64,000 nucleotides of DNA from assembly GCA_047404215.1 (NCBI GenBank), contig JBDOIV010000038.1, positions 2,220 to 66,219 of the forward strand, given 5' to 3'. A program made the position numbers and the translations under genes. Of the stretch, positions 45,061 to 48,000 are shown piece after piece. Numbering within the stretch: the first letter of the stretch is position 1; each line of letters begins with the position of its first letter. This DNA is from Rickettsiales bacterium. GTDB taxonomy: Bacteria > Pseudomonadota > Alphaproteobacteria > Rickettsiales > UBA1997. Under the pieces are notes generated by a model that searched no databases, was not told the DNA's origin, and saw nothing but the letters and a program-made list of their open reading frames with translations.

Positions 45061-48000
45061 ATGACCACACAACGAAATAGAGCCAATCGCTCATCTAAAG
45101 CAGTTCTGTCAAATCGCGCGGCTAAAGCTGTAATACCTAAAATCTTAAAACAGCGTGGTGGTAATTTGTCAAATTTTAGGCAAAGGTCTGCTACTGAGTA
45201 TAGTAAGGGTGAAGAAAAAGGAAAGTCTGCAGGGTATCATAATAGAAAAAGAGGAGCTGGTTCTGTTACCTCTAAAGAATTTGTAAAAGCGAAGTCGAAG
45301 AAAAAGTTAAATAAACCTGTTGCTAGGGCTGCTACTATTGCAGCTTCGAAACCAGGAAGAGGGTCAGGTCAAAATGCTAGGGATGCTCGAAAGGCAGAAA
45401 GATCTCTTGCTTTGTTTTTGCTGGCATTAGGTGTTAGTGCCAAAGTCGCCTCAGCACAAAAATCTTCAGATTTAAGTGGAGTCGAGGCATTAAAAGTTTC
45501 CCCACTTGTTTTTGAGGTTTCAGTTAGTGATGGTGAGTTAAGCTTTGGATATGAATATAATGCTGCAAAGTACAACATAGATATTGCTAATTACTCATCA
45601 GGACTGTTCCTTTCTAGTAATATGTCTATTAAAGATTCTTATGGTAACGATGTATCTCGTGACAAATCAGAGGCAATCTTTAAATCATTAACAAAATTAG
45701 CTAATGACAATATGAAGGGTGTCACTAGAAAAACAGAAGGTTCTGCATATGGTGGAGGGGGTGAGTTTAAGGTTAATAGAGGTGTATCCAGGGGTCTCAA
45801 AGTAAGTCCAGAAGATCCTGCATCTAATGTAGCTTCAGATACTAGCGGTAAAATTATTTTCGAGCGAGCATTGAAGGAGGGAGTTCTTGGTGATTTAGAA
45901 AAAGTTTTAAAAGATAGGCCTGTAATTATCCATGAAGCATTTCCCAATGGTTTATTTCCTATACATATCGCCTCCGAAAATGGAAATGAAGACGCTGTCA
46001 GGTTTTTATTAGAAAATGGAGTAAATCCTAGTATGCTAAGTAATTTGGGTGATCATCCTCTTGATATTGCGGCTCATAATGGTCATGAGAAAATTGTTAA
46101 GCTTTTACTGGGTCATGGAGCAGAAACCAATCTCAAGAGAGTTAGCGATGGAAAAACTGCTGCAGAAGTAGCTAGGAATCTTGGTAAGGATCTTATAGCT
46201 GATATGATTGATGCAAAGTCAGCACTGGTATCAAGTATTTTTCATAAAATTTCTACCTCTTCAGGCTCGATAGCTGATGATTTTGCTGATTTGGCCTTTA
46301 TGCCAGGCAGGAAGGAATATCATGATTTTGAATTTATGATAGATTCTACTCCGGTTTTATATGAAGAGCAGCCTTATCGTGTTAACTATAAAGGTGGAAG
46401 TAATGATGCGCAATTATATGAAGCATCATTAGCGCTAGGTTTACAAAAACTCGGGGATGAAGATATAAATCCTCCGCAGAGTATTACCTTACCTTTGCCC
46501 GTTAATATTGTAACTCGTGGTTCAAACATTTATCCGCCGTTTAAAATCATATCTCCAGATTTAAAAGTTGCATCTAGAGTAGTTTCAGTGAGGAAGGTTA
46601 ATCCTTTAACTAAGGTTTTAGAAGTGTCAAAAGAAAAAATAATAAAGGATGCGGTTGGTGGTGATGATGTTTCAGAAAATTATTTTAGATCAATTAATAG
46701 ATTAGAAGCATTTGGAGTGGGTGATTTAGCTCGTCACAATACATTTCAAAATTCACAGTTGAAATATGTTTTTCCGGATCTTGATACCTTTAGAACTCCC
46801 CAAGTTGAATCTCTTGGTTTTTTATTTAACAACCTTACCTGCAGGAATACATCTGATCTCAGTGAAGTTTGCGTTGAAGGGTTGTCGTATTTGAAATTTT
46901 TTGTTAATGATATGGCTATATTAATTGATTCCCAATGGTGGCAGAGGGCAAAGTCAATTAAGCTAGGGATTTTGGCGCAAGATGAATGGGAAAGACAAGA
47001 TCATGAAAAAGGTTTTTTAGAAGTGGAAAGTGATATAAGAAAATTATCCGCTACAATACCTATAATTAAGAAAGCTATAGATGCTTTAAATCGTTATTCA
47101 GAAAATCATCATGATCAAAAACTGAAATTTGATTACATTAAAAGTTTTCATGAAAATTTGGATAGGATGTTAGAAGGACTTTCCTTGAATAAGCAGCAAG
47201 AAAATATATATTGCGCAGTTGAAGGATATCATTTGGAACGTGATGAGGGTGGTAATGAGGTTCTACTCGCAACTGTTAGAGATATTAGTGCTGGTGGTAA
47301 GTCAAGATATTTTAAGCATTTAAAAGAGGTATATGCAAAATCTGAGTACGCAGATACGCCATTACGATTCAAGGATTCTAATGAAAGAATCATGTTTCTA
47401 CCATTTGATTGCCTGCCTAAATATTTACAAGGTGATATGAAAATTATTGGCGATCTAACAAAAGAACAGAAGGATTTAATGGCAAAAGGCTTAAGACATA
47501 CTGAGCAGGTTCAAGCATTATATGATGCATGTTTGATGAAAGGTGCAGATTCTGTGGCCGCCATTAAGGCGTTTTTCGATAAGGGCGTGAGTGTTGATAC
47601 AGTATTTGAAAATGGTGCAACAAGCCTTCATATAGCTTCTCAAAGAGGAGATGTAGAGCTTATGGAGTTTTTATTAAATAAGGGGTCGGACCCCTCAATA
47701 ACTTTTAAAGGTGAGGGTAATGCTCTAAATTTGGCTACTGAAAACAATCATACAGCAGTAGTTAAATTGCTATTGGGTCGTAGTAGTGTAGATGTCGATC
47801 AGAAAAATGATAGAGGTGAAGCCCCACGAGACGTGGCTATTAAAAATGGTTTCAAAGAAATTGAAGAGTTGATATTGAAGAGTGATCTGCTACATGCATG
47901 CTTGCGTGAGGGTATCGCATTTATTAGGAAAATTCTAAAAAATGATAGTAAATATGCTAATGCGGTGTTAGATGATTGGTCTACTGTGCCAATACATCTT

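Follow-up and report, generated by a model that had tools for sequence, protein, structure and literature searches.

What is a basic leader of about one hundred residues doing ahead of a segment that looks like an ordinary export signal? The question is raised by a 64,000-nucleotide stretch of the genome of a Rickettsiales bacterium (assembly GCA_047404215.1, contig JBDOIV010000038.1, positions 2,220 to 66,219 of the forward strand), referred to here as the window, in which three genes share an unusual N-terminal layout. Each of these genes, designated genes 1, 2 and 3, encodes a basic tail of 114–118 amino acids (aa), then one uncharged hydrophobic segment of 12–18 aa, and then a small-x-small site. 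The original prediction, made from the letters of the window, had described this arrangement in the genes beginning at 45061, 57773 and 62771, and translation finds it at those positions in all three. The coordinates reported for genes 1 and 2 were exact, whereas the hydrophobic segment of gene 3 begins at 63125, one base from the position first given. A fourth case, gene 4, lies just beyond the window end (L084:6378 onward) and was found by extension with a Logan contig, so that the tails range from 94 to 118 residues over the four genes. The architecture, translation, persistence and rarity of these leaders are demonstrated. Tentatively, and at a little less than an even chance, they are explained as Sec-type signals with a giant cytoplasmic n-region, probably cleaved, which export the downstream part of each protein.

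Genes 1 to 3 and their parts all lie on the + strand. In gene 1 (45061..49095; 1344 aa), the tail occupies codons 1–114 (45061..45402) and contains 31 Lys and Arg against 6 Asp and Glu, for a net charge of +25. It is followed by the signal-like segment SLALFLLALGVSA-KVASA (45403..45456), which has a 13-residue uncharged run and a putative signal peptidase I (SPase I) site, ASA↓Q, after 45456 (the arrow marks the cut). The remainder of the protein consists of ~150 aa without a match, three ankyrin repeats, an orphan central domain (residues ~383–837) and a long ankyrin array; the repeats, ~20 in all, were recognized as Pfam matches. Gene 2 (57773..59623; 616 aa) is simpler, comprising a tail, a signal-like segment and an orphan central domain. 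Its tail (codons 1–118; 57773..58126) carries 34 Lys and Arg and 4 Asp and Glu (net +30) and includes the cluster KVKRVKVKK, while its segment, GIVAISILAATA (58127..58162), has a 12-residue uncharged run and a putative site at ATA↓KK. Gene 3 (62771..64000) leaves the window and is complete, at 1064 aa, in L084:3069-6263. Its tail (codons 1–118; 62771..63124) is Arg-rich with a net charge of +17, and its segment, GAFLSSAMATAAVLSSAV-RVGA (63125..63190), has an 18-residue uncharged run and a putative site at VGA↓I. In gene 4, the tail is 94 aa long (net +15) and leads into LQLVLAMLATQALA-RSASA↓S; the sequence read for this gene lacks the C-terminus. Both Logan contigs that cover it (L084 and L087, from two runs) end at the same point in its Thr-rich repeat region.

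The tails of genes 1–3 are alike in composition. They contain 25–34 Lys and Arg and 4–8 Asp and Glu (net +17 to +30), with Ser, Thr, Gly, Ala, Asn, Gln and Pro making up 47–56% and hydrophobic residues 15–19%. Pfam, NCBIfam and PDB sequence searches revealed no folded domain, family or solved relative for the tails, which are of low complexity, and RG/RGG motifs were not enriched above composition in three of the four. An AlphaFold2 model of gene 2, built on a two-sequence alignment, was unusable (predicted local distance difference test, pLDDT, 37); it draws the tail as coil and residues 117–132 as a helix. The leader stretch is a translated, disordered and strongly basic sequence ahead of what otherwise looks like an ordinary export signal.

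The original prediction held that the tails are genuinely translated. This is well supported, as judged from the sequence, by open reading frame (ORF) statistics, start-codon context and retention in old paralogues. The tail frames are stop-free at nucleotide-shuffle P = 1e-4 to 4e-4 for genes 1–3 and 1e-4 to 3e-3 for all four (gene 1, 1e-4), in a genome where a random codon has a stop probability of 0.073; the other five frames contain 2–19 stops across the tails. GC content at third codon positions (GC3) is 0.24–0.30 against an overall GC of 0.41–0.45 in genes 1–3, and 0.21–0.30 against 0.41–0.48 when gene 4 is included (gene 1, 0.24). A GC3 far under local GC is expected of coding sequence in an AT-rich genome, and therefore argues that the tails are coding. 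No competing ORF was found in another frame over the tails.

Start-codon context bears on a rival explanation, in which the main product would start near the hydrophobic segment, and the upstream ORF would be untranslated or yield a minor long isoform. Candidate internal starts do exist: gene 4 has an in-frame ATG at codon 85, and genes 2 and 3 have in-frame GTG or TTG codons at positions 80, 90 and 95, i.e., 24–39 codons before the hydrophobic segment. The earlier statement that no in-frame start closely precedes the hydrophobic segments must be amended to this extent, but every one of these codons stands in poor context. None of 40 gene starts showed a Shine–Dalgarno-like match of at least 4 nt. 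The AT fraction of the 25 nt upstream of the start was instead informative, at 0.87 ± 0.08 for 33 reference starts versus 0.61 ± 0.11 for 599 internal start-like codons. By this measure, the tail ATGs of the four genes reach 0.80–0.88 (gene 1, 84% AT), and the in-frame ATG, GTG and TTG codons within the tails, the codon-85 ATG of gene 4 included, score 0.48–0.72 (z = −2 to −5). Gene 1 has no start-like codon at all from codon 36 to the hydrophobic core (h-region), and its nearby in-frame candidates are TTG codons at positions 118 and 120, within the h-region itself (upstream AT 0.56–0.60). For genes 1, 3 and 4, no start earlier than the annotated ATG is possible, with an in-frame stop 5–6 codons ahead of it, and independent gene callers pick the same ATGs. 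Near-neutral evolution of the first 60 codons of gene 1, described below, would suit internal initiation. The four stop-free frames of 94–118 codons in a 36% GC genome, their coding-like GC3 and the retention of the tails across paralogues at 25–29% identity all stand against it, and internal initiation is regarded as highly improbable.

Upstream sequence agrees with a full-length message in one of the two gene pairs. A 19-nt element, ATTTGACTAAAT, with a −35-like TTGACT, is common to genes 3 and 4 and lies ~65 nt upstream of their ATGs (window 62700-62720 and L084:6305-6325), which is consistent with transcripts that span the whole tail. A promoter scan inside the tail returned just one weak 9/12 match. 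Apart from the 19-nt element, no common DNA was found among the leaders.

The recurrence of the layout is real, but its instances are not independent, as had been implied by counting three genes; with the fourth member included, they form two pairs of paralogues. All-against-all BLASTP revealed a central domain of ~430 aa common to genes 1 and 2 (29% identity, E = 2e-47) and a relationship between genes 3 and 4 at 25% identity (E = 9e-20). A conserved motif at the C-termini of genes 1 and 2 was also considered, but the similarity there is marginal (z = 2.0, P = 0.05). The layout would thus have originated independently in two lineages at most. Genes 1 and 2 both retain a basic tail of ~115 aa, although the tail sequences have drifted past recognition. 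The tails of genes 3 and 4 are still 29% identical, compared to 27% for their ectodomains, and align with one another at z = 3.9 against shuffles. The tails, retained in both paralogue pairs at 25–29% identity, have persisted since old duplications. A leader cassette shared between the two families was considered and rejected, as their tails are no more alike than shuffles (z ≤ 1.8).

Comparison with a related strain (L003) shows how the tail of gene 1 changes over a shorter time. Background synonymous divergence (dS) between the strains is 0.17–0.47, with mnmE at 0.18 and polA at 0.47 flanking gene 1. Most of gene 1 itself (window 45241-49095) is near identical (dS = 0.005), which, against the far higher flanking values, suggests that the gene was recently exchanged or swept. 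A divergent island at window 44897-45240 departs from this pattern: over ~160 nt of upstream sequence and the first 60 codons, dS is 0.14, the ratio of nonsynonymous to synonymous divergence (dN/dS) is 0.94, and there is one in-frame codon indel. The distal part of the tail therefore evolves almost neutrally in sequence while its frame and composition are kept. Codons 61–133 are as conserved as the remainder of the gene. Diversifying selection on the first 60 codons was considered and set aside: a dN/dS of 0.94 is neutral, and the contrast stems from the homogenized remainder of the gene (dS = 0.005). Gene 2 has fared differently. In L003 (window 56554-59823 versus L003:14787-16202), it is deleted save for its first ~59 nt, and the 405-aa signal-peptide gene upstream of it is split into fragments of 150 and 117 aa, so both are dispensable in a close relative. 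A third strain (L088) is too alike to be informative.

The layout is also rare. Among 46 ORFs of 200 aa or more in this lineage, a single rule covering all four cases picked out 4, versus none of 463 elsewhere (Fisher P = 6e-5), the latter being drawn from related and other AT-rich alphaproteobacterial loci that are polA neighbourhoods rather than matched effector islands. The sole other matches to the rule were Arg-rich shadow ORFs of GC-rich genomes. Homology searches were equally restricted in their yield. An exhaustive HMMER search of 1.84 billion representative proteins recovered genes 1 and 2 alone; searches with gene 2, with gene 3 and with a profile of genes 3 and 4 matched only the queries themselves; and scans of genome and metagenome contigs revealed no relatives. 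Ankyrin repeats were the only matches in Pfam, NCBIfam and PDB sequence searches. A hit to DUF6264 was discarded at 17 bits, under that family's cut-off.

What, then, is the hydrophobic segment? The uncharged runs of genes 1, 2, 3 and 4 are 13, 12, 18 and 15 residues long, with mean Kyte–Doolittle values of 2.26, 2.23, 1.51 and 1.41; the h-region of a Sec signal typically has ~7–15 such residues, or up to ~20. Each run is preceded within 10 residues by 2–4 Lys or Arg (RDARKAERS, TRSVKLSVK, RYYRGVVASK and MRREVSYGRN in genes 1–4, respectively), and a basic residue and a small-x-small motif come after it. By inspection, the putative sites ASA↓Q, ATA↓K, VGA↓I and ASA↓S fit the −3/−1 rule. The departure from ordinary Sec signals is one of position and length: these occupy the extreme N-terminus and total ~18–30 aa, whereas the cuts here would fall after residues 132, 130, 140 and 113. 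Four orphan genes of the window with ordinary N-terminal signal peptides, all on the + strand, provide a local comparison: 52592..53926, with FVLLMMVIASASA↓RS at residues 12–24; 55013..56512; 56554..57771, the gene that is pseudogenized in strain L003; and 61693..62661. Their runs of 13–20 residues end in the same way as the four leader segments. By contrast, the second transmembrane segment (TM2) of gene 3 consists of 20 apolar residues followed by KKRRQQ.

These features bear on the alternative that the segment is an uncleaved type II signal anchor. The proteins would then be bitopic (gene 3 with two spans), and the basic disordered tail would act in the bacterial cytoplasm, possibly by binding anionic lipid, nucleic acid or ribosomes, by positioning the protein or by recruiting partners. 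Signal anchors insert by the same logic as cleaved Sec signals and differ from them in cleavage only, so the anchor and the extended export signal, both put forward in the original prediction, are viable accounts of one insertion event. The leaders resemble type II (N-in) bitopic proteins in their positive cytoplasmic N-terminus, single hydrophobic segment and large extracytoplasmic domain, and basic, disordered cytoplasmic N-terminal regions are common in bacterial bitopic proteins. The high positive charge of the tails, the 18 uncharged residues of the gene 3 segment and the KKRRQQ after its TM2 also suit an anchored protein, the last in an N-in/C-in arrangement. However, an anchor is expected to span ~18–20 apolar residues, a length that gene 3 attains, whereas the runs of genes 1, 2 and 4 (13, 12 and 15) are short for a stable span, and that of gene 2 is too short for one. 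The 12–15-residue runs in three of the four, the small residues at −3/−1 in all four, and tails of low complexity without a folded domain likewise set the leaders apart from the bitopic class. With their short length and the kind of small-x-small ending that they share with their neighbours, the segments are closer to cleavable signals than to anchors, and cleavage is favoured over permanent anchoring, which is rather unlikely though worth keeping in view.

Other export routes and known leader types were also examined. The Tat motif (S/T-R-R-x-F-L-K, directly ahead of the h-region) is absent: genes 1–3 lack an RR beside the h-region, and gene 4 has an RR eight residues before it (TMRREVSY) with no F-L-K. 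No Cys occurs in or after any of the four segments, and hence there is no lipobox. The four leaders gave no Pfam match to the extended signal peptide region (ESPR) of autotransporters, even at E ≤ 10, and Pfam and NCBIfam detected no autotransporter, two-partner secretion (TPS) or beta-barrel domain in genes 1–3. An Inc-type bilobed hydrophobic domain, which would take up ~40–60 residues close to the N-terminus, is absent as well, in that each leader has a single 12–18-residue segment, and the second transmembrane segment of gene 3 lies ~700 residues away.

The basic, acid-poor and Ser/Thr/Ala-rich character of the tails, followed by a hydrophobic sorting segment with an AxA motif, recalls the bipartite presequences of organelles, and a leader of this kind would send the protein to a sub-compartment of a host mitochondrion or plastid. 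The resemblance is in keeping with what is generally known of bipartite presequences, and long bacterial signals often have N-domains that score as mitochondrial targeting peptides. The tails nevertheless exceed typical presequences in length, are poor in Leu and include 4–8 acidic residues. No amphipathic helix stands out in them: their maximum helical hydrophobic moments (0.52–0.66) are not clearly above those of composition-matched shuffles (0.49–0.52 ± 0.09), with three tails within 1 standard deviation (sd) and gene 4 the highest at about +1.9 sd. A segment this hydrophobic would, moreover, be captured first by the bacterium’s own Sec machinery. An organelle presequence is therefore barely credible.

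If the leader is a Sec-type signal with a giant n-region, its course might be as follows. Approximately 150 residues would be made before the h-region leaves the ribosome and is bound by the signal recognition particle or SecA. The h-region would then insert into SecYEG as an N-in/C-out hairpin, with the +15 to +30 tail held in the bacterial cytoplasm in keeping with the positive-inside rule, and the large downstream domain would be translocated. Cuts by SPase I, probable at ASA↓Q, ATA↓K, VGA↓I and ASA↓S, would free the mature protein into the periplasm or envelope, with possible onward delivery, and would leave behind a membrane-tethered basic peptide of 113–140 residues that may be degraded or have a function of its own. 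The product of gene 3 would be type I-like (ectodomain, Thr/Ser stalk, TM2 and cytoplasmic tail) and that of gene 1 an exported ankyrin protein. The tail might delay or regulate export where the precursor is very large, act after cleavage, or be recognized by another machine. The first of these is consistent with protein size, since the four tail-bearing proteins range from 616 to 1344 aa versus 322–499 aa for the four plain-signal neighbours, a comparison of eight genes only. Sec dependence, topology, cleavage and any role for the tail are inferred throughout.

Several points weigh against such a signal. To our knowledge, an n-region of ~100 residues has no bacterial precedent, and efficient Sec targeting from behind one is assumed. 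The cleavage sites were judged by the −3/−1 rule alone. Starting at codon 85 of gene 4, the product would read MRREVSYGRN-LQLVLAMLATQALA-RSASA↓S, a textbook 29-aa signal peptide, and the nearly neutral first 60 codons of gene 1 (dN/dS about 0.94) betray little sequence-specific constraint. On the searches described above, both families are orphans without homologues outside the lineage, so they afford no comparative test. Furthermore, the ~20 ankyrin repeats of gene 1 and the eukaryote-like Tyr-containing C-tail of gene 3 suggest a destination in the host cytosol, which is not explained by export to the periplasm.

Precedents for parts of the design can be found. A charged N-domain joined to a signal-like C-domain is known from long signal peptides of both bacterial and eukaryotic origin (PMC2447879). 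Known bacterial signal extensions are ~25 residues long, and the longest bacterial signal peptides total ~50–60 residues. The ESPR of autotransporters and TPS proteins, for which a role in slowing or regulating the export of large precursors has been proposed, likewise sets a charged extension ahead of a normal Sec signal, occurs on exported proteins of very large size and is organized in two domains. It differs from the present leaders in its length (~25 residues, for a total of 50–60, versus 94–118 and 113–140 here), in its conserved motif, which has no counterpart here, and in its autotransporter or TPS passengers, whose domains genes 1–3 do not contain. Long signals of the NtraC type in eukaryotes and viruses, e.g., the 98-aa Rem/Env signal peptide of mouse mammary tumour virus (MMTV), which has its own function once cleaved, match the leaders in size (~100–140 aa) and in the order of a basic N-domain and a signal-like C-domain cut by signal peptidase. 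They operate, however, at the eukaryotic endoplasmic reticulum (through Sec61 and p97 retrotranslocation), whereas the present leaders are bacterial, show no sequence similarity to them and are known from genes alone. The closest bacterial design is thus the ESPR, and the closest in size and layout are the long signal peptides of eukaryotes and viruses.

For the ankyrin-bearing gene 1, a precedent is RARP-1, a Rickettsia ankyrin-repeat protein exported to the periplasm via a Sec signal. It too is a Rickettsiales protein that joins a Sec-type signal, ankyrin repeats and disordered regions, and since RARP-1 combines them, ankyrin repeats are compatible with Sec export. Unlike gene 1, it has a conventional N-terminal signal with the disorder after it, and there is no detectable homology between the two beyond the ankyrin repeats.

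At full length, gene 3 comprises an ectodomain of ~600 aa, a Thr/Ser-rich stretch of ~240 aa (46% Thr, 16% Ser), TM2 with its KKRRQQ, and an acidic C-tail of 201 aa. The positive-inside rule is consistent with a predicted N-in, loop-out, C-in topology. Within the C-tail (L084 about 5660-6263), YxxPhi motifs account for 7 of the 11 Tyr residues (shuffle P = 1.5e-4) and for the most part take the form of G-x-Y-D/S-D-I/L-P repeats; an NPVY is also present, and the C-terminus (...TRETEV) is PDZ-ligand-like. In its predicted domain order, the protein resembles a type I receptor of eukaryotes. Similar Tyr motifs (GGYMDVS, GGYMEVS, PYDVL, SYDEI and AYDDF) occur in orphans of the window that lack a signal (8082-8828, 3549-4394 and 1639-3177). 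The pattern [GSPEA]Y[DM][DESV][VIFL] was found nine times in orphans versus three times in housekeeping proteins (Fisher P = 0.017), but it was defined post hoc, and a host-directed linear motif shared across the orphans is only a lead.

Such features invite the reading that the tail-bearing proteins are host-directed effectors, passed to a dedicated secretion system after, or bypassing, insertion in the inner membrane. The basic terminus would then be a recognition signal, or a lipid-binding, nucleic-acid-binding or NLS-like (nuclear localization signal) module in the host cytosol, and gene 3 might form a Tir-like hairpin in a host-facing membrane. The genomic context is favourable, as the window contains two giant ankyrin-repeat proteins, a poly-proline protein of at least 1113 aa and many orphan, disordered, effector-like genes interspersed with housekeeping genes; the tail-bearing orphans themselves are probably host-interaction proteins. 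The YxxPhi, NPVY and TEV motifs of the gene 3 C-tail, with the related Y[DM][DEV][VIF] motifs of the signal-less orphans, point in the same direction, although the Tyr pattern behind the Fisher test was chosen after inspection of the data. Known type IV signals are C-terminal, which does not fit a basic N-terminal leader, and the segments of genes 1 and 2 lack the length needed to cross a host membrane. No secretion-system gene was found in the window, and no type IV secretion system gene in the ~80 kb of the genome read in total. Type IV systems can pull transmembrane effectors from an inner-membrane intermediate, as documented for type IVB (PMC11602083).

The suggestion in the original prediction that clusters such as KVKRVKVKK serve as NLS-like host-targeting signals gained no specific support: K/R clusters are expected from the composition of the tails, RG-type motifs are likewise not enriched in three of the four, and cleavage would part the tail from the exported domain. 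With regard to known effectors, gene 3 resembles Tir of enteropathogenic Escherichia coli, chlamydial Inc proteins and the transmembrane effectors of Legionella in its two hydrophobic segments, in a C-tail bearing Tyr motifs, and in N- and C-termini that are predicted to share one side of the membrane. It differs in lacking a bilobed hydrophobic domain, in a first segment that looks cleavable and in residing in a window without a secretion-system or chaperone gene. Delivery to the host by a dedicated system is judged distinctly unlikely. A more elaborate proposal, a conjecture to be held with considerable doubt, is that of a portable bipartite leader, in which the segment would park host-directed proteins in the inner membrane and the tail would serve as an extraction handle (e.g., for a type IV coupling protein) or as a functional peptide of 13–15 kDa released by SPase, in the manner of MMTV Rem. 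Gene 3, with its mucin-like stalk, second TM and tail of NPxY, YxxPhi and TEV motifs, would in that case mimic a eukaryotic receptor in a host membrane.

At 94–118 residues, the leader is several times the length of any signal-peptide extension known from bacteria. If the tails do precede functional Sec signals, the known size of the bacterial n-region grows about four-fold, and a role must be sought for a polycationic leader of ~100 residues, be it in regulating how very large proteins are exported, in acting once cleaved off, or in hand-over to host-directed secretion. The layout also carries a warning for annotation, since predictors that inspect only the first ~70 residues would call such proteins cytoplasmic, and mis-scoring of this kind would conceal some of what uncultured intracellular bacteria secrete. 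Should the proteins instead be simple bitopic ones whose cytoplasmic tail is disordered, the layout would be of no more than local interest, as a new member of the bitopic class.

The host of these genes is an uncultured, Rickettsiales-like organism that is rich in lineage-specific effector-like genes and likely lives inside eukaryotic cells. The window has a GC content of 36% and is gene-dense bacterial chromosome, with polA and mnmE among its housekeeping genes, and ftsZ, nuoM/N, rpsB-tsf and lpxA identified by eye. PolA shares ≤60% identity with any species representative, its top matches being freshwater metagenome-assembled genomes labelled ‘Rickettsiales bacterium’, and proteins identical to those of the window are confined to a single 77-kb NCBI contig and the Logan assemblies of a few sequencing runs.

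Three further features of the locus deserve mention. The second giant ankyrin-repeat protein (window 37757-41629; 1290 aa) begins straight with ankyrin repeats and has neither a basic tail nor a hydrophobic segment; therefore, the leader is not general to the ankyrin proteins of this genome. The ORF at window 1-1180 is the C-terminal part of the poly-proline orphan of at least 1113 aa, the upstream portion of which lies in L089:3-3344. It opens in the contig with PPPPPPLP and carries LAEALKGARLKS and LLAEIAQIQLKSV stretches that look WH2-like by eye; WH2 has no Pfam match in this protein, and a role in manipulating host actin is conjecture only. Lastly, a GC-rich island of ~50 nt at window 44590-44650 (ggcgggcaccgcgggtgagcgtgggacggtcgaccatgcggccgcgag), with SalI-like and NotI-like sites, is set in AT-rich intergenic surroundings. 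Its stretch 44603-44634 occurs as a single copy in the window and folds no better than shuffles (z = −1.2), and the island is kept in strain L003.

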